NCBI GenBank assembly: GCA_963422265.1
Contig: OY729416.1
Coordinates: forward strand, 1,472,001-1,536,000
DNA from: Thermodesulfobacteriota bacterium
Lineage (GTDB): Bacteria; Desulfobacterota_D; UBA1144; Nemesobacterales; UBA2774
Direction: 5' to 3'
Length of the DNA: 64,000 nt
Under the pieces are notes generated by a model. The model saw only the letters and a program-made list of their open reading frames with translations. It ran no database searches and had not been told where the DNA came from. Of the stretch, positions 3,244 to 62,074 are shown in pieces. The first letter of the stretch is position 1; every line of letters starts with the position of its first letter. The position numbers and the translations under genes were made by a program.

Positions 3244-3487
3244 AGATTCCTCAGACTCAGAATGACAGGGATGAGGGACGAAAGACACGCGGAAATCGTC
3301 TCCTGAGGGGGCTTATCCCTGCAGTTATATTAAGCAGGGACAGGAATCCAGGGGGGGATAGAGAAACCACGCCTGTTCCCAACCCGATTGGGAACAGGTT
3401 ACCCCTACAGCTTAGAATAATGAAAGAGAGTTAAAGAGAGAAGATAAAACCCTGAAACGAGTTCAGGGCAGGCAGGGCTAGAATGAC
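3244..3487. repeat. Cluster of short palindromic elements between porin and phoB
   Basis: agattcc..gaatgac (3244), atccctgc..gcagggac (3315-3341), cctgttcccaa..ttgggaacagg (3372-3398), ccctgaaacgagttcaggg (3450-3468), gaatgac (3481). Confidence 0.7.
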
Positions 3488-3540
3488 GATTCAGGAGTAA
3501 GGGAAAGATAGGGAATAATTACTACTAGGAGAAGCTCATT

Positions 3541-4233
3541 ATGACTGAAAAGCTGATTGCGATAGTTGATGACGAAGAAGATATAGTCAAGCTAGTGAGT
3601 CACCACCTAAAGAGGGAGGGATTCAGGGTTAAGGAATTTCACAACGGTAGGGACTTTCTCTCCTACATAGAATCAGTAGTGCCTGATATGGCGGTGCTTG
3701 ATCTTATGCTGCCCGGCATAGATGGACTTGAAATCTGCAAAATCCTAAAAAGCAAGAGCTCTACCGCCGCCGTTCCCATCATAATGCTAACGGCGAAGGC
3801 GACTGAAGCCGACATAGTCGTCGGGCTTGAGATCGGGGCTGATGACTACGTAGTAAAACCCTTTAGCCCGCGCGAGTTCGTAGCCAGAGTAAAAACCATC
3901 CTAAGGCGAACGGTGAATAGCGAGGTGGAAGACAACGTTATCAAGGTAGGTCCGCTTAGCATTAATACCGGCACTTATGAGGTAACAGTTGAGAAAAACA
4001 AGGTAATCCTAACCACTACGGAATTCAAAATCCTCGAAGCGCTTGCCAACGGTAGGGGCAGGGTATTCACAAGAGACCAACTACTCAAAAAGAAACGCCT
4101 CTGGGGCGACGACAAGCTGGTTTACGACCGAACGATTGACGTTCACATCAAAAACCTCAGGGAAAAGCTTGGAATTGCGGGTAATATGATTAAAACTGTA
4201 AGGAGCATAGGTTATAAATTAGAGGAAGAGTAA
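3541..4233 (+). CDS. phoB: OmpR/PhoB-family response regulator
   Basis: Receiver domain plus winged helix ('DRTIDVHIKNLREKL'), context with PhoR-like kinase and phosphate porin. Confidence 0.8.
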   Translation: MTEKLIAIVDDEEDIVKLVSHHLKREGFRVKEFHNGRDFLSYIESVVPDMAVLDLMLPGIDGLEICKILKSKSSTAAVPIIMLTAKATEADIVVGLEIGADDYVVKPFSPREFVARVKTILRRTVNSEVEDNVIKVGPLSINTGTYEVTVEKNKVILTTTEFKILEALANGRGRVFTRDQLLKKKRLWGDDKLVYDRTIDVHIKNLREKLGIAGNMIKTVRSIGYKLEEE

Positions 4234-4240
4234 GAACCGT

Positions 4241-6034
4241 TTGAGTATATTTTGGAAACAGTTCATTTCCAGCTTTCTAATCATATTCCTCGTCCTATTC
4301 TTATTTACTTTCCTCGTAATAGGCGAATTAAAGAAATACGATGCCTCCCTGACAAAAGAGAGGCTTCTGACGGCGGCTGGGCTAATTAGCGAAGCCTTCA
4401 AACCTTCCCTGCCAGAACTTAAACCGATCCCTGCTCAGAGACGGGGACACGTTGAGATACAAAACCTAGTGTTGAACCTAGGTGAGAAAACAGGCGTAAG
4501 AATCACGGTATTAGACCAAGATGGCAGGGCGCTTGGCGATTCAAAAAAAAGCCCCAGACAATGGGAAAACTATTCCGATAAACCCGAAGTTAAGGAAGCT
4601 ATACAAAATCGCATAGGGGAAAACAAGCGTTACAGCGGGACGATTCAAAAACAGATGCTTTACGTGGCGGTCCCGCTCAGAGACGAAAATGGAAAGGTAA
4701 ACCTAATTATACGTACGGCGCTTCCGCTTAATGCTATTCAGCGAACCCTTGCGCCCATAGAGTCCAAAGTCATATATCTGGGCGTGGTTCTCACGGTAGT
4801 AGCATTACTGATCTCGCTTGCGGTCTCAAAAACAATCACAAAATCCCTTCAGTCAATCATCAACGTTTCAGAAGAACTAGCTAAAGGCAACCTGAACGTA
4901 AACATCCCGATTATGCACAGCAAGGGTGAAATACCTAAAATAACGAAAGCGCTACACCAGATGGCTCAAAAATTAAACGAGCTTTTTAATCAGCTTTCCC
5001 GCGAAAAGAACCAGCTCGAAGCCGTATTAAGCGCTATGGGCGAGGGCGTTATGGTTATATCCAACGAGGGAAAGGTAACTATTGTAAATAATGCGCTAAA
5101 GGAAATGTTCAATTTCAAAGACGACCCTTGCCAAAAGCTATACTGGGAAATACTGAGAAACAAGGAAATCATAAGGCTGGTGGAGTTCTCGCTCGAAAGC
5201 TGGACTCCTGAAATCAGGGAAATATCGTCTCTTTATCCTGACGAAAGATGCTACTTGGCAAACGCAATACCGATCAATTCTCCTACTAGAGAAATCATCC
5301 TTGTAATGTTCAACATAACCGACTTTAAGAGATTAGAAAAGATTAAGGCGGATTTCATAGCTAACGTATCGCACGAACTAAGAACCCCACTAACGGCTAT
5401 AAAGGGCTACACGGAAACCCTTGAAGAAGGCGCTTATGAAAATCAGAACGACCAGATGCACTTCCTAAGAATTATCAGCAGAAACGCCGACAGGCTAATA
5501 AACATCGTATCCGATCTCTTGGTGCTCTCGGAGGTTGAAAGCAGAGACTCATCATCGGGTGAAAATGCTACGTCCGACTTTGAAGACGTTAATATAAGCG
5601 CCTCAATAAAGTCCATCCTGGAAGCCCTCAAATCTAAAATCGGAGAGAAACTCCTGGAGGTAAACCTGAGCAACGCAAACGGCGACCACAAGATCAAAGC
5701 GAACAGGTTTTTAATTGAGCAGATGCTCATAAACCTTATAGACAACGCGGTAAAATACACCCCGGACGGCGGGAAGATACGCATAGGCGTCTCCAGCGAC
5801 GACTCACAGCTAAGGATAGAAGTAGAGGATACGGGCATCGGCATTGGCAAAGAGCACCTGCCAAGAATCTTTGAGCGGTTTTACAGAGTGGATAGAACCC
5901 GCTCCAGAAGCATGGGAGGAACGGGTCTCGGTTTGAGTATAGTTAAGCATATAGTTATCACGCACGGCGGCAAAATAGAGGTTCAAAGCGAAGAAGGGAA
6001 GGGAAGCAAATTTACAATCGCGATGCCTCGCTAG
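4241..6034 (+). CDS. phoR: PhoR-type sensor histidine kinase (TM-HAMP-PAS-HisKA-HATPase)
   Basis: 'DFIANVSHELRTPLT', 'FERFYRVDRTRSRSMGGTGLGLSIVKH', TTG start. Confidence 0.85.
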   Translation: MSIFWKQFISSFLIIFLVLFLFTFLVIGELKKYDASLTKERLLTAAGLISEAFKPSLPELKPIPAQRRGHVEIQNLVLNLGEKTGVRITVLDQDGRALGDSKKSPRQWENYSDKPEVKEAIQNRIGENKRYSGTIQKQMLYVAVPLRDENGKVNLIIRTALPLNAIQRTLAPIESKVIYLGVVLTVVALLISLAVSKTITKSLQSIINVSEELAKGNLNVNIPIMHSKGEIPKITKALHQMAQKLNELFNQLSREKNQLEAVLSAMGEGVMVISNEGKVTIVNNALKEMFNFKDDPCQKLYWEILRNKEIIRLVEFSLESWTPEIREISSLYPDERCYLANAIPINSPTREIILVMFNITDFKRLEKIKADFIANVSHELRTPLTAIKGYTETLEEGAYENQNDQMHFLRIISRNADRLINIVSDLLVLSEVESRDSSSGENATSDFEDVNISASIKSILEALKSKIGEKLLEVNLSNANGDHKIKANRFLIEQMLINLIDNAVKYTPDGGKIRIGVSSDDSQLRIEVEDTGIGIGKEHLPRIFERFYRVDRTRSRSMGGTGLGLSIVKHIVITHGGKIEVQSEEGKGSKFTIAMPR

Positions 6035-6232
6035 TGGAAAACGTCCAAGGATGAATGAACTTAGGCTATTTGAAAATCAAAACTAAATTCTAAATCCACC
6101 GAGGTATCACCACTCCTAATGTAGGCATCCCTTGACATCCCACCCGTTTGACAAACGCCAACACAAGTATTACTCTCACGAGTGCAGCTAACATTGACTG
6201 AGCGCAAGAATTGCAGAGACGGGGGCTGAGAG

Positions 6233-6577
6233 ATGCGTATAACCCGAAAGGGACAGGTAACAATACCGATTGCCATAAGGGAAAAAGCAGGCTTCTTGCC
6301 TAACACGGAAGTAGATTTTGTTATGGAAGATGGTGAGGTCAAAATAGTGAAAGCCCCTAGTCAAAAGGTTACGAAAGTGAGCGACGAATTCGTCAGGCAT
6401 TTCAAGGAAGCTGCAAAAAATTTGAAAGTGAGCGACGAATTCGTCAGGCATTTCAAGGAAGGCGCAAAAAAATGGAAAATGAGCGATTTGAGCACCGATG
6501 AAATCATGGAGATGACAAGAGACCGTAAACTAGGGGAAATACCTGCCCCGCTATCGAAAAAATACACCAGAAAATGA
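6233..6577 (+). CDS. AbrB/MazE/SpoVT-family antitoxin (VapB) with internal tandem duplication
   Basis: 'MRITRKGQVTIPIAIREKAG' AbrB fold; overlaps the vapC start (ATGA). Confidence 0.85.
   Translation: MRITRKGQVTIPIAIREKAGFLPNTEVDFVMEDGEVKIVKAPSQKVTKVSDEFVRHFKEAAKNLKVSDEFVRHFKEGAKKWKMSDLSTDEIMEMTRDRKLGEIPAPLSKKYTRK
6373..6486 (+). repeat. 51-bp in-frame tandem repeat (about 2.2 copies)
   Basis: gaaagtgagcgacgaattcgtcaggcatttcaaggaag at 6373 and 6424, partial at 6475; encodes KVSDEFVRHFKE(A/G)AK twice. Confidence 0.95.
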
Positions 6578-7014
6578 GAAAGCAAGCGGGTTCTGTGGCA
6601 CTCGTCGACAGCAACGTTATCATTGACCTGCTCAATCAAAACTCAGAATGGATGGACTGGGCTCTCGTTACAATTGCAAGGATGCGCAAAACCACAGCTC
6701 TAGTAATCAACCCTCTAATATACGCAGAGATTTCTGTTCATTTTGACACCCCGGAGGAATTGGAGGAAGTGGTTTCCCCTCACTTATTCGGACGAGAGAA
6801 ACTTCCATTCGAGGCAGCCTTTCTTGCCGGAAAATGTTTCCGTAAATACAGAAGGAGAAGGGGAGCAAAAACCTCTCCACTGCCGGACTTTTACATTGGG
6901 GCTCACGCGGCAGTTATGGAGTGGAGCCTACTGACACGCGACGAAACATACCGAACATATTTTCCCGAGCTTAAAATCATATCCCCAGCCTCTTTCCTAA
7001 CACAGTCACAGTAA
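6574..7014 (+). CDS. vapC: VapC PIN-domain toxin
   Basis: 'LVDSNVIID', 'PLPDFYIGAHA', 'LLTRD' PIN motifs. Confidence 0.9.
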   Translation: MRKQAGSVALVDSNVIIDLLNQNSEWMDWALVTIARMRKTTALVINPLIYAEISVHFDTPEELEEVVSPHLFGREKLPFEAAFLAGKCFRKYRRRRGAKTSPLPDFYIGAHAAVMEWSLLTRDETYRTYFPELKIISPASFLTQSQ

Positions 7015-7515
7015 TTATTCCTCCGCAGTTTGACGCTCGCCAAGTTGCGCGTCCAATATAATCAGGGCAGCTCCACTATCGCCAGCAAGTTTTAGCTTCT
7101 CTAGCACGTCGCTTGCACTTTTCTCTTCTTCCACCTGCTCCTGAATAAACCATTGAAGCTCTACCGCCGTCGCATGGTCATCCTCATTCAACGCCAGCTC
7201 ATAGAGCTTATTAATCATCCCAGTAACTTCCATCTCGTTATCCAGAACCTGCTGAAACATATTGGTCAAAGACTTAAACTGCGATTGAGGCTTACCAATA
7301 GCTTGCAAGGTAACTTGCGCTCCACGGTCTATAACGTAATCAAATAGCCTCATAGCGTGCCCAAGCTCTTCCTCGCTTTGCCTCCTCAGCCAGTTTGCGA
7401 ACCCCGCCATATTAATAGACTCACAATGAGCCGCCATAGAGAGATAAGTGTAAGATGCAAAGTACTCATTTTTAATCTGGTCATTCAGCGCGTTTAGCAA
7501 TTGTTTACTCAGCAT
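7015..7515 (-). CDS. ftnA: Non-heme ferritin
   Basis: 'LNDQIKNEYFASYTY', 'EEELGHA', 'WFIQEQVEEE' ferroxidase residues; ATG at 7515 after aaggagg. Confidence 0.9.
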   Translation of the reverse strand: MLSKQLLNALNDQIKNEYFASYTYLSMAAHCESINMAGFANWLRRQSEEELGHAMRLFDYVIDRGAQVTLQAIGKPQSQFKSLTNMFQQVLDNEMEVTGMINKLYELALNEDDHATAVELQWFIQEQVEEEKSASDVLEKLKLAGDSGAALIILDAQLGERQTAEE

Positions 7516-7603
7516 GTCAACCTCCTTCAATTGGATTATGTTATAATGCTAACCAAGTCTAAAATATATCAACCCCAAACATCTTTTGCCTTAATTATCC
7601 CAT

Positions 7604-7651
7604 ATAATGAGACTAAGTTCAAGTAGTTACCATATGCAAATAATTACCATC
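7604..7651. promoter_or_regulatory. Possible Fur-like operator sites upstream of ferritin
   Basis: ataatgagactaagttcaa and atgcaaataattaccat resemble Fur-box half-site arrays; degenerate. Confidence 0.35.
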
Positions 7652-8144
7652 TAATTTTTCAAGGGGCACCGCTTTGAGGCAACTCAGAGGTCGATAGAAA
7701 CTCTCGCTTCCTATACAGTCGTAACCCCTGAACGGCACTTACGCTTACTCCACCTTATCATTGCTCGCTTTCCTAGTTACTATAATAAGTCTCCCAGCTA
7801 GGCAAGTACCTAAATAGTTACGTGAAAGCAAAAAACTTGGACAATACATAACAGAATTCGGGAATAAGATATATTACATAGTGGGTTTCATTGTAGGCAT
7901 ATCTACAATAGTTACCATACTGGTAAACTTTCTTGGTTAATAGAGATTACCCCATAACTAGTTACTGAGTGGTACTTGCTCTAATTTAATGATCCTCATA
8001 AATCCCTAAAGCCTATCATCACCTACAGAGTTGGGACACGATGGCTTGGACGACTACCCAAGCAGGTCGCCTGTTGCGTTTTACCCCAATTTCACTATCA
8101 TTTGTCGTATAAAGCGCGTGCTTCAGCACGTGATAATTAAATAT

Positions 8145-9344
8145 ATGGATATTCTCACTGCCCTTGAAACGTCGTATAGATCAATAGCGGCAAACAAAAT
8201 CCGCTCCATATTGACAACGCTTGGGATTATCATAGGCGTCGCCGCGGTGATTATACTCATTTCCGTTACGCAGGGAGCCAAACGGAAAATTGAAGAACAG
8301 GTAACGGGGCTAGGTGGAAAATCGCTTATCATTAAGAGAGGGAAGAGAGGGGTTGAAGGTAATAAACTCATAAATCTTTCAGATAGAGACGTAGAAGCGA
8401 TAAAAAAATTAGAAACCGTGCAATATGCAGTACCCCTAAATGATACCGGATGGCAAGTTAGCAGAGGCGACAAGAGCTGGTTCACAACTATTCTAGGTAC
8501 CTCGCCAGATTTTGTATTTATAAACGATTGGTTCACTGGAAAGGGGAGTTTCTTTAATAGTCTTGACGTCCAGGGGTCAAAGAAAGTCTGCGCACTTGGA
8601 AGCACGGTGGCTGAGAGGTTATTTGGCAGTCAAAATCCCATACATCAACACGTAAGAATAAAAGATAACTCCTTCCTAGTAATCGGCGTTATGCGCCCGC
8701 TGGGTCCGACCCCGACAGGGAAGGGGCAGGATGATCTGATAATAATTCCTCACACTACGTATAAGAAAACAATAGAAGCATTTTCAACCTTAGAAGCCAT
8801 CTCGGTATCAGTAAAAAACAAGGAAGAGATATACGTTGCGGAGAAGGAGATAGGCAATCTGATAAGAGAGCGCAATAATCTAAGCCCCGACGATAAAGAC
8901 GCCTTCTACATACGAAATCAAACTTCGGTTATAAACAGAATCTTTACCATCACTAAAATAATGAGCGTCCTGCTTGGCGGTATCGCCTCAATTTCGCTTA
9001 TCGTAGGCGGCATCGGAATAATGAACATTATGCTCGTGTCGGTTAAAGAAAGAACCAAAGAAATTGGAATAAGATTAGCCGTGGGGGCAACGGAGAAGGA
9101 TATACTGACCCAGTTTTTAGTAGAGGCGATCCTGCTCTCGTCCGTAGGGGGTGCAATAGGCATTCTGGTTGGTATAGCAGGGTCTCATATAGCAACTAAT
9201 CTTACAAACTGGACAACTGCCGTAACGCCCGGCTCGATTCTCATCTCCTTTGGCTTCTCCGCCGCTATAGGAATATTTTTCGGATTATACCCTGCCGTTC
9301 AAGCCTCAAAGATGAACCCCATACAGGCTCTGAGATATGAGTGA
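8145..9344 (+). CDS. MacB/FtsX-family ABC transporter permease
   Basis: 'NKIRSILTTLGIIIGVAAV', 'GGIGIMNIMLVSVKERTKEIGIR', 'PIQALRYE'; ATG at 8145. Confidence 0.9.
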   Translation: MDILTALETSYRSIAANKIRSILTTLGIIIGVAAVIILISVTQGAKRKIEEQVTGLGGKSLIIKRGKRGVEGNKLINLSDRDVEAIKKLETVQYAVPLNDTGWQVSRGDKSWFTTILGTSPDFVFINDWFTGKGSFFNSLDVQGSKKVCALGSTVAERLFGSQNPIHQHVRIKDNSFLVIGVMRPLGPTPTGKGQDDLIIIPHTTYKKTIEAFSTLEAISVSVKNKEEIYVAEKEIGNLIRERNNLSPDDKDAFYIRNQTSVINRIFTITKIMSVLLGGIASISLIVGGIGIMNIMLVSVKERTKEIGIRLAVGATEKDILTQFLVEAILLSSVGGAIGILVGIAGSHIATNLTNWTTAVTPGSILISFGFSAAIGIFFGLYPAVQASKMNPIQALRYE

Positions 9345-9465
9345 CCCCGTCGCGTCACTCTTGTAAAAGTTATGCGTAAACCTATCTTTGATCGTAAGCG
9401 GAGCTCGTAAACCTAAAAAACAGGTAGCTTTTGCAGTCCCGAGCAACAAGCAAATTGATCGAGAA

Positions 9466-10767
9466 ATGACTACCTCAGTCTCAAATACAAAAAAGCGCGG
9501 CGAAGCGCTTAGCTGGTGCATGTATGATTGGGCAAACTCCGCTTTCGCGACTACCGTCATGGCAGCCTTGCTCCCGGTCTACTACAGCAGGGTTGCAGGA
9601 GCCGGCTTATCGCCTAGCACCGCTACGGTATATTGGGCATATACTACTGTCATAGCCCTGCTTATCACGGCGCTTTTAGCCCCTATAATGGGCGCAATAG
9701 CAGATTACAAGGGTTACAAAAAGAGGTTTCTCGCTGCTTTTGCGGCGCTCGGCGTCTTCGCCACGGCGCTTCTATATTTTGTAACTACCGGTGATTGGAT
9801 CATAGCATCCTTGTTTTACGTGATAGGCAACGTGGGTTTTGCAAGCTCGGAAGTGTTCTATAACTCTCTATTGCCCAACGTGGCAGAGCCGCAACGCATG
9901 GATTATTTATCCACGAAGGGCTACGCCCTGGGCTACCTCGGCGGGGGCGTCTTACTCGGCGTAAACGTTCTGATGATTGAGCTTATGCAAGATAAAGAAC
10001 TGGCTACGCGCCTCTCCTTTGTTGCTGCGTCAATATGGTGGGCGGTCTTTACTATTCCCATACTGCTTAACGTAAGAGAATCTAAAACGCTTAATAAAAA
10101 CGCAAGTAAGGAGAGCCTCCCCGCGCTAGGAGTCGGAGACGCGCTCTCTACTGGCTTTACGAGACTCTTGAAAACCTTTAAGGAGCTTAGGAGACACAGG
10201 GAACCATTCCTCTTTCTCATAGCCTTTTGGGTTTATAACGACGGAATAGGCACAATAATAAAAATGGCGACGATTTACGGAGTTGAGGTTGGTATCGACC
10301 AAATGGCTCTCATAGGAGCGCTCCTAATGACCCAATTCGTAGGTATTCCCTTTTCATTAGCCTTTGGCAGATTGGCGGGTTACATAGGCGCTAAAAACTC
10401 TATCTTTATCGGACTGATCTCTTACACGTTGATCTCTATAGGTGGTTACTTCATGCAAACGGCGCTCCATTTCTGGACGCTGGCATTTTTCGTAGGAGTC
10501 GTGCAGGGGGGCACCCAGGCGCTAAGCAGGTCGTTTTTTGGTTCTATGCTACCTAAAGCTAAGACGGCAGAGTTCTTTGGCTTCTACGGAATGAGTTCAA
10601 AGCTTGCGGGAATCGCAGGACCGCTCTTATTTGCAGTCGTCTCTCAGATAGCTGGCTCAAGTCGCTTGAGCATAGTATCTCTAATAGTATTTTTCATCTT
10701 GGGGGGCGCTTTGCTGAGCCTTGTAAATGAGAGGAAAGGCGTATGCGCGGCTAAACATTATAGATAA
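9466..10767 (+). CDS. MFS transporter, UMF1/Atg22 family
   Basis: 'WCMYDWANSAF', 'YNSLLP', 'GGTQALSRS', 12-TM pattern. Confidence 0.88.
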   Translation: MTTSVSNTKKRGEALSWCMYDWANSAFATTVMAALLPVYYSRVAGAGLSPSTATVYWAYTTVIALLITALLAPIMGAIADYKGYKKRFLAAFAALGVFATALLYFVTTGDWIIASLFYVIGNVGFASSEVFYNSLLPNVAEPQRMDYLSTKGYALGYLGGGVLLGVNVLMIELMQDKELATRLSFVAASIWWAVFTIPILLNVRESKTLNKNASKESLPALGVGDALSTGFTRLLKTFKELRRHREPFLFLIAFWVYNDGIGTIIKMATIYGVEVGIDQMALIGALLMTQFVGIPFSLAFGRLAGYIGAKNSIFIGLISYTLISIGGYFMQTALHFWTLAFFVGVVQGGTQALSRSFFGSMLPKAKTAEFFGFYGMSSKLAGIAGPLLFAVVSQIAGSSRLSIVSLIVFFILGGALLSLVNERKGVCAAKHYR

Positions 10768-10861
10768 AGTTATACAACCCCCTTTTGTAGAGAAAGAAAT
10801 TCTCTGTTTTCAGTAACGAATGAGCTTAACTACCTGTCAACATTGAAAATAAAAAAGATGC

Positions 10862-10891
10862 TTGACAACATACTCAGCCGTCCGTTATTAT
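10862..10891 (+). promoter_or_regulatory. sigma70-type promoter of dnaA
   Basis: TTGACA-N18-TATTAT, followed by DnaA-box-like sites (ttgtccaca 10942, tgttgataa 10966). Confidence 0.5.
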
Positions 10892-11010
10892 GAGTTCGCC
10901 TGTTTTATTGCTGCATATCTTGTCCAAATCCTACTATCAAAGTTGTCCACATGCTGTTGACTGCCTGTTGATAACCTGTATTTATGTTAACGGAGGGTTA
11001 ATAGGAAAAG

Positions 11011-12567
11011 ATGGAAGAAGAAACAAAACTCATCAAATACGATTTGAGGTCGGTTTTTTCAAAACTAAGCGAGGGTGAGAATAAAGGGCTGGAGATATTA
11101 ATAAAGCAGGCTATTCGTCAGGACGAAACAACGGCAAGATGCTTTCCTACGCGCTTTAAACCTGAAACTGAACGGACGGAACACCAAGCTAGAAAAGCAT
11201 CCTGGAAAAAGGTTTTAGAGATTATAGAGAGAAAGTCCAATCCGCAGGTATTCTCTTGGTTTACCCCTCTAAAAGCTTTGGTAGAAAGCGAAAAGAGTCT
11301 TGCTCTTGAAGCGAGCAGCGAGTTTGATAGAGACTGGATAAACAACAATTACATGGGTTTTATTAAAGAGGCTGTGGAAGAATTATACGGCGACGCGGTC
11401 GAGCTGAAAATCGTATCGCCCCTTCAGCAACCCCAGGACCGGGAGGACCAGGACACTACGCTCCAAAACACATTTAGCCATGGAAAAGAATCCGCTCCTA
11501 AAGGAGGACACAAAAAACGTGACGAAGGACACCCAAAATTAAACCCAAACTACTCATTCGACAGATTCATCGTAGGGCCTAGCAACCAGTTTCCCCATGC
11601 TGCTTCAGTAGCAGTCGCAACTAATCCGGGCAAGGCTTATAACCCCCTATTTATTCACGGAGGGGTTGGGCTTGGCAAAACACATTTACTTAACGCAATT
11701 GGGAACTATATAAAAAGCTCACAGCCCAATGCAAGGATATGTTGCATCTCAGCAGAGAGTTTTACAAATCAGATGATAAATAGCATAAAGTCTAACAGAA
11801 TGGAAGAGTTTAGAAGCAGATACAGATTCGGGTGCGATGTTTTATTAATTGACGACGTGCAGTTCATTGCAGGAAAGGAAAGCACGCAGGAAGAATTTTT
11901 TCATACCTTCAACACCCTTTACGAATCAAAAAAACAGATTGCGCTTACAAGCGATAAATCCCCAAAGGATATGTCGTATTTAGAAGAGAGGCTCCGCTCC
12001 AGATTCGAATGGGGACTCATAACCGATATACAACCCCCAGAGACCGAAACCCGGACAGCTATCATAAAGAACAAGACGGATTCAGAAAGAGTCGCGGTTT
12101 CAGATGAAGTAGCACTTTATTTAGCTAAAAACACATCTTCAAATGTTAGAGAGCTTGAGGGGATGCTCACTAACATAATAGCCCGCGCAAGACTGCTGAA
12201 TACCGAAATTTCACTAGAACTTGCTAAAGACGTTCTAAAGACCATTGTAAAAAAACAGGAAAAGAAGCCTCTTACCATAGAATTTATACAAGGAGAGGTA
12301 GCTAAATTCTACGGATTAAAGATAAGCGAGCTAAAATCTGAAAGAAAGCAGAAGAATATAATCCAGCCTAGACAAACTGCAATGTATTTAGCAAGAAAAT
12401 GTATAGGGGCATCATATCCTGAGATAGGTGAAAAATTCGGTGGCAAGGATCACTCCACCGTTATCCACGCCGTCAAGAAAATAGAAAAGAATCTAGCCGA
12501 AGACCACTCCTTAGCAAAGACCTTGGATTTCTTCTCTCAAAAATTTGAAACGTTAACTCAGGAGTAA
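11011..12567 (+). CDS. dnaA: Chromosomal replication initiator DnaA
   Basis: 'YNPLFIHGGVGLGKTHLL', 'LLIDDVQF', 'RLRSRFEWGL', 'GGKDHSTVIHA'. Confidence 0.98.
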   Translation: MEEETKLIKYDLRSVFSKLSEGENKGLEILIKQAIRQDETTARCFPTRFKPETERTEHQARKASWKKVLEIIERKSNPQVFSWFTPLKALVESEKSLALEASSEFDRDWINNNYMGFIKEAVEELYGDAVELKIVSPLQQPQDREDQDTTLQNTFSHGKESAPKGGHKKRDEGHPKLNPNYSFDRFIVGPSNQFPHAASVAVATNPGKAYNPLFIHGGVGLGKTHLLNAIGNYIKSSQPNARICCISAESFTNQMINSIKSNRMEEFRSRYRFGCDVLLIDDVQFIAGKESTQEEFFHTFNTLYESKKQIALTSDKSPKDMSYLEERLRSRFEWGLITDIQPPETETRTAIIKNKTDSERVAVSDEVALYLAKNTSSNVRELEGMLTNIIARARLLNTEISLELAKDVLKTIVKKQEKKPLTIEFIQGEVAKFYGLKISELKSERKQKNIIQPRQTAMYLARKCIGASYPEIGEKFGGKDHSTVIHAVKKIEKNLAEDHSLAKTLDFFSQKFETLTQE

Positions 12568-12804
12568 AAGATGTGTATAAATTGTGGAATAATTTCCAAC
12601 CACTCTGTGTATAAACTTAACTATAAGGCTTCTGTGGATAAAGCTTAAAAGAGACTCCATGCTTTCAACATAATTATCAACATGAAAAGACTAATATATA
12701 TAGTAGGATAGGATACTTTTACACAAGTCAACAGTTCCTACTAGTACTACTATTGAATATTTAGAATAATTTCTTTTATTAATCATAGTGAGGGAGTAAT
12801 AGTT
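12568..12804. other. Replication origin oriC (dnaA-dnaN intergenic)
   Basis: DnaA boxes tgtgtataa (12572, 12606), tgtggataa (12633), ttatcaaca (12674), ttttacaca (12717); trio-like ctactagtactactat (12738-12753) and an AT-rich stretch. The plus strand appears, by eye, to become G/T-richer downstream. Confidence 0.88.
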
Positions 12805-14067
12805 ATGAGATTTAGAACCCAAGTAGAAAATTTCTCGTTAAGACTAGGGTTGGTTCAGGGTATTTCTGAAAGGCGCGCCGCCATGCCAGTATTATCCCAC
12901 GTCCTAGTTACAGCCAAAGAAGACAAGATAGAGATTTGCGCGACAGATTTAGAAACCACAATGGTGACCTGGTGTCCGGCTGACGTCGTGCAGCAAGGTA
13001 GTTTAGCCTTGCCAGCGAGAAAGCTGTTTGAAATAGTGAGGGAGTTGTTAAGCGGAGACTCTGCCCGTGAAGGAGAGATTGAAATAGATGAGATAGGCAA
13101 CCATTGGGTAGAGGTTAAATCTCTCTCCACGAATTTTAAGATAGCCGGGTTGCCTAGCGAAGATTTTCCTATAATTCCTGAGTTTAAATCGGATTCCCTT
13201 CTCTCTCTAAAGAGCTCCGTTGTTGAAGCAATGATATCAAAGACTATATTTGCGGTGTCCTCCGATGAGCTAAGAAGAAACTTAGCCGGGATATTTTTTG
13301 ACGGGAGCAATGCCCCAAACCAGTCTTTAGAATCCACCCGTGAGGGATCCCAAGGCAGCTCCCTAAGGTTGGTAGCGACTGATGGGCATCGCTTGTCTAT
13401 CGTAGAAAATAGTATGGACGTCGTCACTAATCTTGACAAACAAAGTGCCGTTGAGGGTGAACAGGTGGTTCAAGATAGTGAAGACGCCAGTCCAGAACTT
13501 ATTTTAGGTTTTGGCGAAGGTTTTGTCGTTCCTAAAAAAGGGGTTGCTGAGCTTAGAAAGATTTTGAGGCTATCAGAAACCGTTAGGATAGGACTGGGGG
13601 AGAATTTCTTCACGGCTGAAGGCGAAGAGATAATACTTATTTCAAGGCTAATAGACGCTGAATTTCCCAATTATGAGCAAGTTATTCCTAAATCTTCTAA
13701 GACAACTATTATAATTACTCGTAGTGAGTTTTTAGGTGCTCTAAAGAGGGTATCTATACTTTCATCTGAAAAAACCAGGGGTGTAAAGTTTAAATTAGGT
13801 CAGGATGGCATAACCCTAGTTACCATATCTCCAGAAGTAGGGGAGGCTAAGGAACTTGTGCCGGCAGAGTATTCCGGAGAGCCTATGGAGCTTGGATTTA
13901 ACTCAAGGTATTTATTGGACGTTTTAGAGGTAATAACTCATGATAAGGTGCAGTTAGGTCTGACGGACGAGCTCAGCCCTGTCGTAATCAAGCCTGATCC
14001 TGAAACAAGTTCTGGACTGGTTGAAGGGGAGTCTTACCTGTCCGTTATAATGCCTATGAGGATTTAA
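12805..14067 (+). CDS. dnaN: DNA polymerase III beta clamp, enlarged by loop insertions
   Basis: 'ATDLE', 'LVATDGHRL', 'SRLIDAEFPNY', 'VIMPMRI'; 420 aa. Confidence 0.97.
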   Translation: MRFRTQVENFSLRLGLVQGISERRAAMPVLSHVLVTAKEDKIEICATDLETTMVTWCPADVVQQGSLALPARKLFEIVRELLSGDSAREGEIEIDEIGNHWVEVKSLSTNFKIAGLPSEDFPIIPEFKSDSLLSLKSSVVEAMISKTIFAVSSDELRRNLAGIFFDGSNAPNQSLESTREGSQGSSLRLVATDGHRLSIVENSMDVVTNLDKQSAVEGEQVVQDSEDASPELILGFGEGFVVPKKGVAELRKILRLSETVRIGLGENFFTAEGEEIILISRLIDAEFPNYEQVIPKSSKTTIIITRSEFLGALKRVSILSSEKTRGVKFKLGQDGITLVTISPEVGEAKELVPAEYSGEPMELGFNSRYLLDVLEVITHDKVQLGLTDELSPVVIKPDPETSSGLVEGESYLSVIMPMRI

Positions 14068-14080
14068 TCCCCCCCATTAT

Positions 14081-14863
14081 ATGTTGGACCTGCTATTCCC
14101 TAATACGTGTGCTTACTGCGAAAGGATGACCACCGAATGCTATAGCCGAAATCACCAATTGTTAGGAAGCAAGGCTATATGTGATGAGTGCAGTGGCAGC
14201 ATAAGATTTATAGATAGGTTTTCCAGTTGCTCTAAGTGTGGGGTTCCATTCGGCTTTTTCGTATCTTCCGCCGAGCATTCTCCGATTACCCATGAATCAG
14301 AAAATAACTCGGCTACGAATAATCATTTATGCTCCGACTGCTTAAAAGGGAAATTCCATTTTAATAAGTCTAGGTCCGTTGCTTTATACGAAGGCAAAAT
14401 AAGAGATATGATTCATAAGTTTAAGTATGATGGGTATTTGGTTTTTGGAGATTCCCTGTCCGACGTATTGGTAATGAACTTGCCTCAAGACTTGGATGAG
14501 TTTGAGTTGATAGTTCCCGTTCCACTCTACATAGGTAAACTTAGAGCAAGGGAATTTAATCACTCAGCCATCTTCGCCAATGCGTTATCCCGTTCTACCG
14601 GGGTGAAGTGCGATGTTATGGGGCTAAAGAAAATTAGAGAAACAAGACCACAATTTCAAATTAAGGGTGAGATTGAAAGGCAAAAGAATGTAAAAGGGGC
14701 ATTCTCTGCTCCTGTTCCACACAGTTTCAGACGTAAGTCGGTACTGATTGTGGATGATGTGTTTACAACCGGATCAACTAGCGACGAGTGTGCTAAAATC
14801 CTGTTTAGATCGGGGGCGTCTCTGGTTCAAGTACTCACGATTGCAAGGGCGAAAGCTATGTAG
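14081..14863 (+). CDS. comF: ComF family protein (zinc ribbon + PRTase)
   Basis: 'LFPNTCAYC', multiple CxxC, 'LIVDDVFTTGST'. Confidence 0.9.
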   Translation: MLDLLFPNTCAYCERMTTECYSRNHQLLGSKAICDECSGSIRFIDRFSSCSKCGVPFGFFVSSAEHSPITHESENNSATNNHLCSDCLKGKFHFNKSRSVALYEGKIRDMIHKFKYDGYLVFGDSLSDVLVMNLPQDLDEFELIVPVPLYIGKLRAREFNHSAIFANALSRSTGVKCDVMGLKKIRETRPQFQIKGEIERQKNVKGAFSAPVPHSFRRKSVLIVDDVFTTGSTSDECAKILFRSGASLVQVLTIARAKAM

Positions 14864-14999
14864 GATAAGTTTGACTTTGAAATACTTTTGTTTTAGAATT
14901 GGTATCTTACTTAAAAGCGTAGTTTTTAAGAGCGTGTAGAACTAAGATGCGTAATTTTAGACTATTAGGAGTGTAGAATATGGAGTGTGGTGCACAGTA

Positions 15000-16463: not shown

Positions 16464-16470
16464 TGGAAGT

Positions 16471-17070: not shown

Positions 17071-17071
17071 A

Positions 17072-18416: not shown

Positions 18417-18445
18417 TTGACACGCTTTTAGGCTGTCGCTATCAT
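18417..18445 (+). promoter_or_regulatory. sigma70-type promoter of pheA
   Basis: TTGACA-N17-TATCAT, 13 nt before the ATG. Confidence 0.65.
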
Positions 18446-18458
18446 CATTGAGGTACTG

Positions 18459-19547: not shown

Positions 19548-19581
19548 GTTGTTCGCGTAGGGAATGGGTGGAGGTCAATTC

Positions 19582-20775
19582 ATGGCTGATAAACTAACAA
19601 TTAACCCTCAACGCATTAAATGTATGATGGAAATCTTCGGGCTTTCTGAAGGGGATTTGTTAGAACTAGTGAGCACCGGATTAAAGAATAAAATTAGAAA
19701 AGAAGCAGTTTTCACGCCGCATATTAAAAAGAGTCATCTTAAAAAAATTGATGAGGTATTTTCCAAGGGCCTTTCTTTTTATACGGATCCCGAAGAACTA
19801 AGAAAGGAAAGATTATCCAGCGTATTCTTTAGAAAAGATAATTTCAACTCAGATATTGCGTTAGGTGATAGGCAAATTGTCCATAAAATGGAAACAAGGA
19901 TTCATTCCTTATCTGCTCTGTCGAAACTCTCGGGTTATGAAATTGGAAGGAAGCTAAACATATTCTCAGTTACTGATAGTCCGGAAGAAGTTGCTAGTCA
20001 AGTTAGAGAAAACTTACATCCGGATAAACAAATAAATAGAGATAGGGATTTTTTAAGAGCATTAATAGATAAGCTTGCTGAGTATAATATCTTAGTTTTA
20101 GAGTTTGTCGAAAGCTGGAATAGAAAAAACAAATCCAATATAAACGGTTTTTTTATTACTCCTAACAATATTGTTATCAAAAGACAGCAAAACTCTCTCA
20201 AGAGAGAGATATTTACACTAGCGCATGAACTGGGGCATTATCTCTTAAACGATGAGCAGTTAGATAATATACAATTTAACCAACCCCAAGAGAGTAAAAA
20301 CATAGAAAACTGGTGTGATAGCTTCGCCTTTGCCTTTCTAGTTGGATATAGGGAGATAAAAGGCTTAAAATCAATATCTTCTGATGTTAAATATAATGAT
20401 GCGCAAATAGAAGCTATCTCCAAGCAACACCATATCAGTCGTTTGGCCTTGTTTGTCCACTTAGCAATAAATAAACGAATAGCTTGGGAGGGATATAATA
20501 AGCTCAAATCTGATCTTGAAAAGGAATACGACGCCAAGAAGCAAAGGGAAAAAGAAGCGGAGAAACAATTGAATAAAGAACATGGGAAAACAGTAGGATA
20601 CGGTAGTTCTAAACCTATTCCGTCTCCATTGGAAAAGGATATTTATACAACGGCTTATTGTGAAGGGGTTATTGATGAATATGAAGCCTTATCTTACTTC
20701 AACAAAAATATCCCTTCGACAGGCTCAGGACATCCCTCAAAGCAGAAAAGCTTAGACGATTTCCTCTATGAATAA
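19582..20775 (+). CDS. ImmA/IrrE (DUF955) metallopeptidase with degenerate N-terminal HTH
   Basis: 'IFTLAHELGHYLL' HExxH, 'IENWCDSFAFAFL'; AT-rich. Confidence 0.85.
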   Translation: MADKLTINPQRIKCMMEIFGLSEGDLLELVSTGLKNKIRKEAVFTPHIKKSHLKKIDEVFSKGLSFYTDPEELRKERLSSVFFRKDNFNSDIALGDRQIVHKMETRIHSLSALSKLSGYEIGRKLNIFSVTDSPEEVASQVRENLHPDKQINRDRDFLRALIDKLAEYNILVLEFVESWNRKNKSNINGFFITPNNIVIKRQQNSLKREIFTLAHELGHYLLNDEQLDNIQFNQPQESKNIENWCDSFAFAFLVGYREIKGLKSISSDVKYNDAQIEAISKQHHISRLALFVHLAINKRIAWEGYNKLKSDLEKEYDAKKQREKEAEKQLNKEHGKTVGYGSSKPIPSPLEKDIYTTAYCEGVIDEYEALSYFNKNIPSTGSGHPSKQKSLDDFLYE

Positions 20776-20803
20776 ATATAAGGCAGTAGAAAAAAGGACT
20801 TGA
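20768..20803 (+). pseudogene. Truncated start of a coupled downstream gene (possibly DUF4411/PIN)
   Basis: MNKYKAVEKRT* overlapping the ImmA stop; family inferred from the usual ImmA-DUF4411 pairing only. Confidence 0.3.
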
Positions 20804-26432: not shown

Positions 26433-26560
26433 CTTGGGGAGCGTTACTCCTTAGAATAATTAGTGGAATATCCCGCAACTAGCGTAGCATGTAAGTAAGT
26501 AAGGGGCTAATAGTGAATAATGATGCAAAGTTATCGGGCGATCCTTGCTAACGGAAGTTA

Positions 26561-26576
26561 CCCTTCGGCAGGCTCA
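26561..26576 (+). repeat. CCCTTCGACAGGCTCAGG-type mini element (intergenic copy)
   Basis: cccttcggcaggctca, 15/16 identical to the copy inside the ImmA gene at 20712. Confidence 0.65.
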
Positions 26577-59185: not shown

Positions 59186-59260
59186 TAAATGATCGTCGGA
59201 CTTGTCTCTACGTGCTCACTTATATACACGCCAAACTCGCTGTTGACTTAGCCATTTGTT

Positions 59261-61396
59261 ATGCGACGCATCAACACTAAGCTTTCTTTAGCTTTGCTCT
59301 CCATTTTTATAATAGCGTCTGAGACAGGCGTGGCGCGAGTGATCACTCCTCAAACTGAATCTCAAACTTGCTCTGGATTTGTTTCAGAACTAAATCATAA
59401 ATTCAAGCCGCGGACGCACAGCGAACAAGATGGCGAGGATAAACTTAAGAGGGGTTACTGCCTTATTAAATTGGGACAATTCCAGGAGGGTATATCAAGT
59501 TTGTCCGGCGTTGAAAAAGAACTTCCTTCGGTTGGAGAATACGTAATTTACTATCAAGCCGTGGGTTACGAGAAACTGGGTAACCACTCAAAATCCGAGG
59601 CATTACTTAACAAGATTCTAACTCGGTATCCAAGAAGCGCTCTTAGGAAGAAAGTCCTAGATAGTCTTGCAAGTATTTACATTCAGTTGGGTAATTACGC
59701 CGAAGCGGAAAAGCTACTCAGAGCACTTTACTATGAAATAGGCTCGGCGCGGATCGCAGGGCAATATGGGCTAGGATCAAAGGCGTCCTATCTATACAAG
59801 CTTGGCGAGGTAATGGAAAAACAGCAAAGATACGGCGACGCCCTTGATTTTTATAAAAAAACGTGGATAGAGCATCCAGAAACCAGATTTTCAAATCAAG
59901 CCTATCAATCCGCACAAAACGTAAGCAATCTGCACAGAATCCACTTTCAGCCTACGCAGGCCGATTATCTGAAAAGGGCAAATACCCTTTTTGAGCGCTC
60001 AAGGTGGGGTTTAGCAATTAAGGACTATCAAAAACTCTCGTTACGCCCTAATACCCTAAGTGAGTCTGAGAGAAGCAATGTCCAAACCAAATGGGGAATC
60101 TCAATGGTGCAGATTAAAAGATTAAACGATGCAGATAGGCTTCTAGCGGGTGTAAAATCGCCCGAGGCGCTATTTTGGAGAGGTAAGATAAAAGCTAAAC
60201 AGGGTTTTAACAATAGGGCATCGGAGATTTACTCGCATATACAACTTCTTTACCCTTCAAGCCCACTTGCTGCTGAAGGTCTTTATAAAGCGGCGCGGTT
60301 ATACCAGATAAACGGCAATAGACAGAAAGCCGTAGTGGCCTATAATAGACTTGTTAAAACATATCCTAGAAGCAAATATGCCAAATATGGGACGTGGAAT
60401 CTTGGCTGGATATACTACAGACAGGGCATGTATGGTAGGGCGGACGCTCAGTTTTCAGCGATCTTGGACTCAAGCCTCACGTTTAATTCATCCAGAGCCA
60501 AGTATTGGAAAGCTAGAACCTTAGAAAAACAAGGTAGAAAGGACGAGGCGGGCGTCATATACAGAGAACTAACGGCTTCAGCTAAGCCGAGTTACTATAG
60601 CTTTCTATCTCAAAGAAAAACTGGAAGCTTACCTAGATATGCGGAGGTGGCGACTAGGCTGACCACGATTAGCCCCTCAACAAAACTGCGAAAAGAAAAA
60701 GTGAAGACCTTGATGCGACTTGGAATGCGCGACGACGCTAGGCTTGAGATTAAACAAATGGAGTATGAGGCAAATTTGAAAGAGGAATTTATGGTGGTAA
60801 GTTTGCTCTATTCAGAAGTAGGGGATTATTACAATTCTATAAAAATTGCCCAGAGAGCAGGATTACCTCAAGCCAATGTTCTATCTTTTCCCCTTGCCTA
60901 CAGAGACATAGTCAGCACTTACACTAAAAAATACGGCGTGGACGAGTTGCTTATTTATTCGATCATTCGCGAAGAGAGCAGATTTCAGGAAGATGCAGTC
61001 TCTAGCGCTAAGGCTGTTGGGCTTATGCAGTTGATACCACCTACCGCAAGAATCGTTGCAAAGGATATTGGGATCAAAGGATTTATCCCTAAAATGCTTA
61101 CAATACCAAGGGTCAATATAGAAATGGGCACCTGGTATTTCAGAAAGCTATTGGACGAATTACAAGGGGATGTAGAGCTTGCGCTTGCCGGCTATAATGC
61201 GGGCCCGCGCAAGACTGCTGAGTGGAAAGCAAGATTACACGGTTTGGAGAAGGACGAGTTTATTGAGGAGATCACATTTAGTGAAACAAGAAACTATATC
61301 AAAAGAATTTTGAGAAGTTACGGTGTTTATAAAGCAATATACCGTGACGTCGTCTCCCCAGCGGCAACCGTTGAAACTACGAAAGCTGGAAAGTAG
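59261..61396 (+). CDS. TPR-containing soluble lytic transglycosylase (Slt family)
   Basis: TPR repeats; 'IIREESRF', 'GLMQL', 'YNAG', 'ETRNY'. Confidence 0.9.
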   Translation: MRRINTKLSLALLSIFIIASETGVARVITPQTESQTCSGFVSELNHKFKPRTHSEQDGEDKLKRGYCLIKLGQFQEGISSLSGVEKELPSVGEYVIYYQAVGYEKLGNHSKSEALLNKILTRYPRSALRKKVLDSLASIYIQLGNYAEAEKLLRALYYEIGSARIAGQYGLGSKASYLYKLGEVMEKQQRYGDALDFYKKTWIEHPETRFSNQAYQSAQNVSNLHRIHFQPTQADYLKRANTLFERSRWGLAIKDYQKLSLRPNTLSESERSNVQTKWGISMVQIKRLNDADRLLAGVKSPEALFWRGKIKAKQGFNNRASEIYSHIQLLYPSSPLAAEGLYKAARLYQINGNRQKAVVAYNRLVKTYPRSKYAKYGTWNLGWIYYRQGMYGRADAQFSAILDSSLTFNSSRAKYWKARTLEKQGRKDEAGVIYRELTASAKPSYYSFLSQRKTGSLPRYAEVATRLTTISPSTKLRKEKVKTLMRLGMRDDARLEIKQMEYEANLKEEFMVVSLLYSEVGDYYNSIKIAQRAGLPQANVLSFPLAYRDIVSTYTKKYGVDELLIYSIIREESRFQEDAVSSAKAVGLMQLIPPTARIVAKDIGIKGFIPKMLTIPRVNIEMGTWYFRKLLDELQGDVELALAGYNAGPRKTAEWKARLHGLEKDEFIEEITFSETRNYIKRILRSYGVYKAIYRDVVSPAATVETTKAGK

Positions 61397-61405
61397 TATC
61401 AGGTG

Positions 61406-62074
61406 TTAGGCTAAAGCCACTTTCCTTTGCTCCCCGCAAAGAAAGGCGAAATTGCTCAATATCTTCAGACCAAGTTCACCACTTTTTTCAGGGTGGAACT
61501 GGCAGGCGAATATATTACCCTTCTGAACCGCTGCAGTGAACTCCACACCATAGCTTACCTTTATTGCACTTAGGCTTTTATCTTCGGGTTCAGGATAGTA
61601 AGAATGAACAAAGTAAAACCAGCTCCTATTAGGGATTCCCTTGAGAACAGGTGTATTCTTTTGAATTTCAATTTCATTCCACCCCATGTGTGGGACTTTT
61701 AATCTTTTCTCTCCACTAAAATCCCTGCCCTCACCCCTAATTGGGACGGGAAACCTAACTACTCTGCCTCTGAGGAGTCCAAAACCTGGCACTCCAGAAT
61801 GCTCTTCACTTTCTTCAAAAAGAACTTGCAGCCCCATACAGATTCCTAGAAAAGGCTTGCCCGAGCTAATAAATTCCTTAACGGGTTTTATTAGCTCATA
61901 CTCCCCTAAATTTTTCATACAATCCCTAAAAGCACCTTGACCGGGCAATACTATGCCGTTGGCGTTTCTAATATCCCTTGCCTCTCTAGTTACTATCGTA
62001 TGGAAGCCCTGGCTTTGAAAGGCTTTGCTTACACTTCGGAGATTCCCCATTCCATAATCTATTACTGCAATCAT
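61406..62074 (-). CDS. hisH: Imidazole glycerol phosphate synthase glutaminase subunit
   Basis: 'IDYGMGNL', 'GICMG', 'PHMGWN', 'QFHPEKS'. Confidence 0.97.
   Translation of the reverse strand: MIAVIDYGMGNLRSVSKAFQSQGFHTIVTREARDIRNANGIVLPGQGAFRDCMKNLGEYELIKPVKEFISSGKPFLGICMGLQVLFEESEEHSGVPGFGLLRGRVVRFPVPIRGEGRDFSGEKRLKVPHMGWNEIEIQKNTPVLKGIPNRSWFYFVHSYYPEPEDKSLSAIKVSYGVEFTAAVQKGNIFACQFHPEKSGELGLKILSNFAFLCGEQRKVALA

Follow-up and report, generated by a model that had tools for sequence, protein, structure and literature searches.

Units of 23-24 nucleotides inside conserved genes of a closed Thermodesulfobacteriota genome: candidate mobile micro-elements inserted in frame

Very short hairpins with similar ends occur in several housekeeping genes, and between genes, of a 64,000-nucleotide (nt) stretch of a Thermodesulfobacteriota genome (hereafter the window; G000:C1:1472001-1536000), and the question raised by this locus is whether they are discrete elements that were inserted in frame into conserved proteins and, if so, what could have moved them. 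A preliminary description of the sequence had answered the first part in the affirmative, attributing the hairpins to a mechanism that recognises conserved stem-base ends, written as ATCC...GGAC, whatever the core. The reading favoured here, to which a probability of about 0.6 is given, is that they are non-autonomous mobile micro-elements of 23-24 nt, akin to small dispersed repeats (SDR) and repetitive extragenic palindromes (REP), that entered conserved genes in frame through an enzyme acting in trans and under selection. The genome (G000) is closed, a single contig of 1,783,595 bp with 44% G+C and a completeness of 99.4%, and is smaller (1.78 Mb) than those of family-level relatives (2.0-3.4 Mb). 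The homologues of its sliding clamp, DnaN, carry the labels Dadabacteria or Thermodesulfobacteriota, and the host organism is not a cyanobacterium. All the hairpin strings quoted in the preliminary description were found where it had placed them, and its gene names are borne out by Pfam: a PhoB/PhoR-like pair (a response regulator and a HisKA/HATPase kinase), DnaA, DnaN, a Peptidase_M78 protein of the IrrE/ImmA type and HisH (GATase).

The length of extra protein segments provides the genome-wide evidence. Stop-to-stop open reading frames (ORFs) of G000 were compared with those of a relative, G006; the 969 reciprocal-best pairs comprise 303,165 columns of alignment, and this catalogue covers 2.4 of the 3.12 Mb of G006 (77%). 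Segments of 7, 8 and 9 amino acids (aa) present in G000 and missing in G006 number 10, 30 and 8, with another 4 and 2 at 16 and 24 aa, and the corresponding numbers in the opposite direction are 5, 7, 4, 0 and 0. The peak at 8 aa in G000 has a Poisson probability of 2.8e-8 (at least 30 with a mean of 9), and the small 8-aa bump of G006 is not significant (p 0.17). This sharp peak, with the lesser ones at 16 and 24, speaks against a first alternative, namely that the segments are ordinary lineage-specific indels of a fast-evolving, reduced genome, alike only by chance and by their GC-rich composition. Such an origin is considered very improbable as a general account, although the inserts are indeed richer in G+C than control segments (51% versus 44.5%), as that account would have it. 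Tandem duplication of the flanks, another conceivable origin of the inserts, was rejected.

The units themselves share one architecture and fall into a few sequence families. Hairpins of 16-24 nt with TCC..GGA ends, a stem of 5 bp or more and a CAY tail occur 51 times in the genome versus 20-32 times in ten shuffles; the unit measures 23-24 nt, and the tail after the stem base 3-6 nt (CAYG or CATCGC). From this architecture, the ATCC...GGAC ends of the preliminary description represent the stem base plus the first letter of the conserved tail. The strict family to which the insert in the PhoR-like kinase belongs (module C), TCCC-N(11-12)-GGGA-CAYG with 23-24 nt, has 16 copies versus 0.44 expected from composition, with stems of 6-8 bp, G-T pairs included, and loops of 5-6 nt; at stem positions 5-7 these copies, which are few and related, show the alternatives C-G/T-A, A-T/G-C and A-T/T-A/C-G. 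The consensus of module A, CCCTTCRRCARGYTCAGGACATCGC, which contains the core found at window position 20712, has 48 matches at no more than 4 mismatches in 20 nt where a calculation gives about 1.4 by chance. It folds weakly, with a stem of about 5-6 bp and a loop of 11 nt, has no stop in five of the six frames (read by hand), and its copies lie mostly in a repeat-rich zone that begins at 1.62 Mb, passes the numbering start and ends at 0.1 Mb. Module B is the family of the intergenic hairpin at 3451, whose recurrence had been pointed out and proved real: it has 18 matches at no more than 4 mismatches versus about 1.4 expected by calculation, including those at genome positions 26453, 564054, 808233 and 1672571, and 6 of the 18 overlap module A. 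Thus, the idea of conserved ends with variable cores holds in that TCC..GGA-CAY is kept while the inner stem varies with apparently compensatory pairs, but the cores are not free, since they fall into few families and the core at 20710 is a fixed 24-nt unit. A search of Rfam with five module A loci (15,005 bases, E up to 0.1) returned no family.

The unit is discrete: it lengthens a REP loop by 24 nt and genes by 24 nt (8 aa), and two strains differ by exactly 24 nt. A GTAG-headed REP hairpin of this genome has a loop of 5 nt (ACAAG/CTTGT) in 34 matches and of 29 nt in 4 matches (3 loci), and the 24 additional nt of the filled loop are a module A unit, CCTTCAACAGGCTCAGGACATCGC; REP loops of 32 and 46 nt are variants. 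The strain difference was found in the Logan contigs of four runs, compared over window positions 3000-21000. The contig of run X6 (22,020 bp, depth 50.6) lacks exactly the 24 nt of the module A unit at 20712, in the gene of the ImmA-like protein, and this empty allele is in frame, whereas runs X4 and X5 retain the unit. Since the absent block can be placed at either 20712-20735 or 20713-20736, a target duplication could not exceed 1 nt. Because the two outgroup homologues also lack the unit, its gain in the lineage of the window is the simpler reading of this comparison. Both the empty and filled REP loops and the coincidence of a 24-nt strain polymorphism with a repeat copy are hard to accommodate among ordinary indels. 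X6 differs from the window at 158 letters over 11.7 kb (about 1.3%), and the units of the PhoR-like kinase and of DnaN are present in X4, X5 and X6, the three DNA-like runs. Run X8, which may be of RNA, reaches parts of this region, and no RNA data set is listed for the stretch. X6 further has 17 nt duplicated in tandem behind 6100, lacks two stretches between genes, each of about 45 nt (18149-18195 and 18247-18294), and, directly after the ImmA-like gene, carries 548 other letters in place of 81 nt (20778-20860).

The extra protein segments also resemble these units, and one another, in sequence. A position weight matrix (PWM) of module A was built from 55 copies (E no higher than 0.01), all outside orthologous ORFs, and 9 of the 99 inserts of at least 6 aa exceed the 99th percentile of the controls, against an expectation of about 1. 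Among 48 inserts of 7-9 aa, 15 insert-to-insert pairs have at least 14 identities in 18, whereas 20 control sets average 3.9 such pairs and never exceed 8. The word CGGGGA occurs in 10 of 99 inserts versus 11 of 990 controls and CAGGGA in 8 of 48 versus 9 of 480, about ten-fold in each case, although counts of such GC-rich words are inflated by the GC richness of the inserts. End motifs are similarly enriched: ATCC-N(8-25)-GGAC is found in 5 of the 30 eight-aa inserts versus 2 of 300 control coding segments, and TCCC-N-GGGA in 4 of 30 versus none of 300, with no enrichment of reversed-order motifs made of the same letters. The latter comparison, together with the positive matrix and all-against-all tests, argues against chance likeness through composition. 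On the other hand, the loose motif is not enriched in the whole genome, where ATCC-N(8-25)-GGAC occurs 753 times versus 754-827 in five dinucleotide shuffles (15 versus 10-14 with stems of at least 6 bp), a result that fits ordinary indels; the shared ends proposed in the preliminary description are therefore real in the 8-aa inserts and too loose as a genome-wide signature. Altogether, about one third of the 8-aa inserts are recognisable units and about 9 of the 30 are ordinary background, the remainder being unexplained or too diverged. Ordinary indels are already contradicted for the clear copies, and they may hold for those roughly 9 of 30 events and for the site in DnaA, which lies in a linker that varies everywhere.

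At the sites of the window (Table 1), each protein was aligned with the orthologues of as many as 30 family- or order-level relatives, and the in-frame insertions that had been claimed were recovered at four of the five gene sites, in the PhoR-like kinase, DnaN, the ImmA/IrrE-like protein and HisH. Five insertions were tested for polarity against many relatives, four of 8 aa (in the kinase, DnaN, HisH and at 60041) and the 13-aa one of the ImmA-like protein, and all five are confined to the G000 lineage. The 8 aa of the kinase (24 nt, 4427-4450), which carry the tag-plus-hairpin signature TCCC-N-GGGA-CAYG, are missing in 12 of 12 relatives, one of which has 2 aa there. The 8-9 aa of HisH are missing in 19 of 19 orthologues, and the 13-aa stretch around 20712, where the module A unit has an nhmmer E of 3.7e-6, is missing in both homologues of the ImmA-like protein found among 20 relatives. 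The insert at 60041 has a module A score of 0.2, barely above the control 99th percentile. For DnaA, about 6 extra aa are seen at 11490, but the length of this linker differs across all 19 relatives, and the string, at most a possible unit, does not recur in the genome. The hairpin at 3315, which lies between the divergent ORFs 1832-3085 (minus strand) and 3541-4233 (plus strand), has the TCC..GGA ends and lacks the CAY tail, and it is unique: even with 3 mismatches allowed, the genome holds no other copy. As to the hairpins as such, those at 3315 and 3451 have stems of 7 bp, whereas those at 20710 and 11490 have stems of only 3-4 bp. The recurrence of the 20710 core at 26561, also proposed before, is real but represents a weak, truncated copy.

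Table 1. Repeat units and lineage-specific inserts of the window (positions in window numbering; aa, amino acids; pLDDT, predicted local distance difference test)
Feature	Sequence or peptide	Position	Strand	Remarks
Intergenic hairpin	ATCCCTGCAGTTATATTAAGCAGGGAC	3315..3341	+	7-bp stem TCCCTGC/GCAGGGA
Module B copy	CCCTGAAACGAGTTCAGGGC	3450..3469	+	Intergenic; perfect 7-bp hairpin
PhoR-like histidine kinase, 24-nt in-frame insert	IPAQRRGH	4427..4451	+	Module C
DnaA domain-II linker stretch	ATCCGCTCCTAAAGGAGGACAC	11490..11511	+	Possible unit with a stem of 4 bp and the tail GGACAC
DnaN insertion i, 6 aa	SGDSAR region	13048..13065	+	Carried by 0/18 orthologues
DnaN insertion ii, 14 aa	DGSNAPNQSLESTR	13303..13344	+	Carried by 0/18 orthologues; pLDDT <50, residues 169-183
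DnaN insertion iii, 26 aa		13432..13521	+	Carried by 0/18 orthologues; pLDDT <50, residues 206-234
DnaN insertion iv, 8 aa / 24 nt		14004..14027	-	Carried by 0/18 orthologues; overlaps string at 13997-14017
Module A unit, 24 nt	CCTTCGACAGGCTCAGGACATCCC	20712..20736	+	In frame, C-terminal region of ImmA/IrrE-like protein; 1-nt placement ambiguity
Truncated module A-like copy		26559..26576	+	Intergenic; weak, nhmmer E 0.08, model positions 5-22
8-aa insert, 711-aa ORF 59261-61396	IAGQYGLG	59753..59776	+	Extra relative to G006; no recognisable module
8-aa insert, ORF 59261-61396	LRPNTLSE	60041..60064	+	Carried by 0/14 relatives covering the site
HisH, 24-nt in-frame insert	VPIRGEGR (plus strand CCTGCCCTCACCCCTAATTGGGAC)	61724..61747	-	Degenerate, GGGAC end

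The sliding clamp has 420 aa, versus 366-384 aa in 18 orthologues, and contains three insertions (i, ii and iii) in addition to the one previously listed. The latter (iv) is indeed an insertion of 8 aa, although it is better read as an antisense copy of module A than as the sense hairpin first described at 13997: 17 of its 24 letters match the antisense 24-nt unit (hand count), so that the copy is a diverged one, and its matrix score is 11.7 against a control 99th percentile of -1.1. Gene copies of the units occur in both orientations. Insertion iii contains a word 3 mismatches away from the 13997 string, and in X6 it is shorter by 12 nt, at 13506, which indicates that inserted loops keep changing length in frame. 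That insertions sit in loops, as had been supposed, agrees with an AlphaFold2 model of DnaN (alignment of 31 sequences, mean pLDDT 80.8, predicted template modelling score 0.79), where four of four inserts are predicted between secondary-structure elements: the first (residues 81-90, mean pLDDT 66) lies between the helix 71-82 and the strand 91-98, and the 10-residue blocks with the two short inserts average 66 and 60. In a search of 5.8 billion proteins, the inserts of DnaN are common to one relative alone, P0001 (96% identity, 420 aa); the next match is 62% identical and has 366 aa, as have nearly all DnaN homologues there. The four insertions are all within dnaN (12805-14067), and the AAA+ and DNA-binding domains of the adjoining DnaA (11011-12567) hold none.

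Several observations weigh against mobile micro-elements as the source of the inserts, and they are set out together here. The end motif or a module A score is present in only about one third of the 8-aa inserts. The inserts contain 14 perfect hairpins whose stems reach 6 bp or more, with 11.8 expected, and the folding energy of the inserts is slightly lower than that of controls (z -0.54 versus -0.20, p 0.03). The best non-self blastn-short score of the inserts does not exceed that of controls (99 versus 990, p 0.63), hence most of them are not near-exact repeat copies; this lack of an excess of close matches and of perfect hairpins is what ordinary indels would give. The filled REPs may have multiplied as whole REPs and would then not be independent insertions, and the one difference between strains may reflect a precise loss. 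The DnaN inserts, being common to a protein 96% identical, indicate that most gene copies are old. Finally, Y1_Tnp (the transposase of RAYT and IS200), the TnpB zinc ribbon, DDE_Tnp_1, rve and IS110 have no match in the whole of G000, and Y1_Tnp does not track the copy number of module A among the relatives: G016, G012, G005 and G008 have module A copies and no Y1_Tnp match, whereas G003, G019, G023, G026, G028 and G029 have Y1_Tnp matches and no module A copies.

The mover is therefore not one of the five transposase families searched for in G000. Control genomes gave matches for these families, and PF01797, which stands for the RAYT/HUH enzymes named in the preliminary description, matched 6 of 14 reference genomes and has no match in G000. 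The search covered the five families, DUF559, GIY-YIG and reverse transcriptases, and did not extend to Cas1 and tyrosine recombinases. The two nuclease domains, also suggested as candidates, do occur, but only inside large ORFs (DUF559 C-terminally in an ORF of 792 aa, GIY-YIG within one of 609 aa) and not as small stand-alone genes, and in agreement with the preliminary description no mobilising enzyme was found in the window. The sole reverse transcriptase of G000 (L204, genome positions 1038358-1038822, minus strand) is of the AbiP2 defence type (PADLOC E 8.5e-200), has a weak PIN-like ORF downstream and shows no link to the units.

The lack of a Y1_Tnp gene in a genome with GTAG-headed REPs would also suit a second alternative, in which the units are fossils of a past burst of the REP/RAYT type whose tyrosine transposase has since been lost and the difference at 20712 is a precise deletion. 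The REP-transposase associations known as REPtrons can be lost by deletion according to PMC3733652, many inserts are degenerate, the four DnaN inserts are older than the split from P0001, and the genome is small. However, slippage would need a direct repeat beside the 24-nt gap of X6, and none there exceeds 1 nt; the 20712 unit is also missing from both outgroup homologues, and a divergence of only about 1.3% over 11.7 kb makes the event recent. Y1_Tnp does not follow copy number in the relatives either. This alternative is regarded as quite improbable.

Relatives and other phyla extend the picture. Among 31 genomes of relatives, the module A pattern (1 mismatch allowed) has a patchy distribution, with 37 matches in G000, 79 in G002, 30 in G016, 19 in G012 and 8 in G005, and none in 19 of the 31, G006 included; a reversed control pattern has 0 or 1 match in the genomes scanned. 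The exact 19-nt core, CCTTCGACARGCTCAGGAC, is found at no fewer than 124 loci of a collection of species-representative genomes, where about 9 are calculated by chance, with flanks unrelated to one another. These loci belong to Sphingomonadales, Chloroflexota, Bacteroidota, Acidobacteriota, Actinomycetota, Planctomycetota, Myxococcota, Burkholderiales and a metagenome-assembled genome of Dadabacteria, among others, and isolates of Sphingomonas, Altererythrobacter and Sphingobium are represented. In these phyla (loci L217-L339), the core lies mostly between arms of the CCGT..GAACGG type and often has a second unit, of the GTGAGCTTGTCGAACCA type, nearby; its 3' half is sometimes arranged in short tandem arrays. 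The tail of the cross-phylum unit may resemble the part of the 16S rRNA that follows the 27F primer site in some phyla; at that place the 16S of G000 (5' end, genome position 73064) differs. As to other short repeats of high copy number, G000 contains a 21-nt palindrome, TCCCCCTTTTCTAAAGGGGGA, in about 100 copies, CTATCAAATCCCCCTGTATCC in about 60, a CRISPR-like repeat, GTTTCAATCCCTTATAGGTAGTCAAA, in 58 copies, and long runs of poly-C.

If mobile micro-elements are indeed involved, the unit would consist of one short hairpin with a TCC..GGA stem base followed by a tail of 3-6 nt, and a trans-acting enzyme would recognise, on the folded single strand, the tail and the stem base and be indifferent to the inner stem and the loop; recognition of conserved stem-base ends, the central proposal of the preliminary description, would survive in this form. 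The mode of transfer could be a hairpin-guided single-strand cut-and-paste, by analogy with IS200/IS605 and RAYT/REP, that would leave a target duplication of 1 nt at most and proceed in either orientation. Selection would then purge gene copies that shift the frame, bring in a stop or hit a structured part.

A third alternative dispenses with a dedicated enzyme: by copy-choice, a nascent strand would, during replication or repair, briefly take as template a further copy of the unit or a folded hairpin, copy about 24 nt and return. Such templated spread, favoured at hairpin tips and in single-stranded regions, is considered unlikely. It would explain that none of the five transposase families is found, that units are inserted at the tips of REP hairpins and that no target duplication above 1 nt is seen. 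It would also account for the clustering of the inserts with the repeat mosaic, since 69 of the 99 inserts of at least 6 aa in G000 lie in an origin-proximal third, a region chosen post hoc, that holds 41% of the aligned bases, whereas indels of up to 3 aa show no such clustering (this region runs from genome position 1.45 Mb via the numbering start to 0.30 Mb, and includes the window, dnaA and the GC-skew minimum at about 1.60 Mb). Against it, REP loops, gene copy and strain difference all have the unit bounded at the same points, which free template switching is not expected to reproduce. Moreover, inspection by eye shows no microhomology common to the flanks of the known sites (REP loop AC^AAG, gene AT^CTC), and the identical cores across phyla argue for a conserved requirement for recognition.

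Among the known systems, the closest in size are the SDR of Nostocaceae, which Elhai et al. (2008, Genome Res 18:1484) reportedly described as repeats of 21-27 nt whose families are little alike in sequence and keep, through compensatory changes, a common hairpin; they are reportedly nested in other repeats and treated as mobile, with no known mover. Compared with this description, the units of G000 are alike in size class (23-24 nt, with 55 copies of module A), in forming several families of hairpins, in being nested in repeats and in having no known mover; the paired alternatives at stem positions 5-7 of module C may be compensatory as well. They differ in belonging to another phylum and in that one of their families recurs unchanged in many phyla. 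Further differences are the peak at 8 aa, seen in conserved proteins throughout the genome, and an empty site at the level of strains. The SDR paper is cited in PMC5861425, PMC3116915 and PMC2884548, and PMC5861425 reports no SDR-like repeat outside Nostocaceae among HIP1-rich cyanobacteria.

GTAG- and CGTC-tagged REPs inside genes, notably those of replication and repair, are described in PMC3733652 (Di Nocera, De Gregorio, Rocco 2013), the CGTC REPs being without an associated transposase and having a stem of 8-9 bp and a loop of 4-5 nt (Table 1 of that paper). The units are similar to CGTC REPs as small, palindromic and intragenic repeats that have a short fixed terminal tag and no transposase, and the cross-phylum consensus of module A reads CGTCC on the reverse strand. 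In contrast, the copies of G000 end in ..GGACAY (reverse RTGTCC) and so have no CGTC tag, and neither module A nor the TCCC family fits the stem and loop sizes given there. Six peptide words of module A were looked for in the supplements of PMC3733652 and none was found. With regard to GTAG REPs, the units are guests inside their loops. Miniature inverted-repeat transposable elements (MITEs), defined by terminal inverted repeats, a target-site duplication and a length of 70-300 bp, differ in size and duplication from the units, which have 24 nt and, at the strain-polymorphic site, a duplication of 1 nt at most.

Rickettsia palindromic elements (RPE), reported by Ogata et al. in 2000, reportedly measure about 100-150 nt, form the families RPE-1 to RPE-8 and add tens of residues to proteins. 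As selfish palindromic repeats placed in frame in functional, often essential genes, where they add surface peptides, they offer a parallel for the effect on proteins, and in-frame insertion is found here in the PhoR-like kinase, DnaN, HisH, the ImmA-like protein and the ORF 59261-61396. RPE are mentioned in PMC3733652. The difference is one of scale and range, the units here having 24 nt and 8 residues and RPE being far longer and reportedly restricted to Rickettsia. In the REPIN/RAYT and IS200/IS605 systems, the substrates are hairpins with an adjoining guide or tag, no target-site duplication is produced and single-stranded DNA is preferred. The units resemble these systems in all of these respects, but each is a single 24-nt hairpin, neither doubled as in REP doublets nor split into left and right ends, and they occur in a genome without a Y1 transposase and in relatives where Y1 genes do not track the copies. 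The REPIN/RAYT system is the subject of PMC3116915 (Bertels and Rainey 2011). As far as tested, the units thus agree with the SDR description where the two can be compared, and lie outside the definitions of CGTC REPs, REPINs and MITEs. A literature search, with subscription journals largely outside its reach, retrieved no paper on 24-nt in-frame units across phyla; nothing relevant came up for palindromic repeats inserted in frame in several phyla, for Dadabacteria repeats or for the peptide and DNA words of module A.

A more far-reaching proposal, put forward only tentatively, is that this tail-plus-hairpin class of 23-24 nt is the smallest mobile DNA of bacteria, moved by a conserved host enzyme that acts on folded single strands and not by a transposase belonging to the family of the element. 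It would likewise be a tentative explanation of the unchanged core letters across phyla that the mover is a conserved enzyme of replication or repair. Entry at hairpin tips and exposed single strands, with no target duplication and a steady addition of 8-residue loops to proteins, among them essential ones, might then follow, a suggestion to be held with equal reserve. If this were true, small protein insertions that are now ascribed to slippage would partly be footprints of units.

Should units of 24 nt move at all, they would set a lower size limit for mobile DNA, and the question would become what reads a tail and a stem base and pastes 24 nt without target duplication in a genome where the five transposase families searched for have no match. 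To the known repeats, the window adds a genome-wide length peak, an empty site at the strain level and a closed genome without those families, and two strains that differ in whether the ImmA-like gene carries the unit turn mobility into a testable question. For annotation, the units account for short extra loops and for many spurious small ORFs in repeat regions. The occurrence of the same core in many phyla points to something general and not to a local oddity. As for the proteins of this organism, the change amounts to about 20 insertions of 8-residue loops above background in conserved proteins of G000, and the replication clamp alone has four extra loops, one of them an 8-residue copy of module A.

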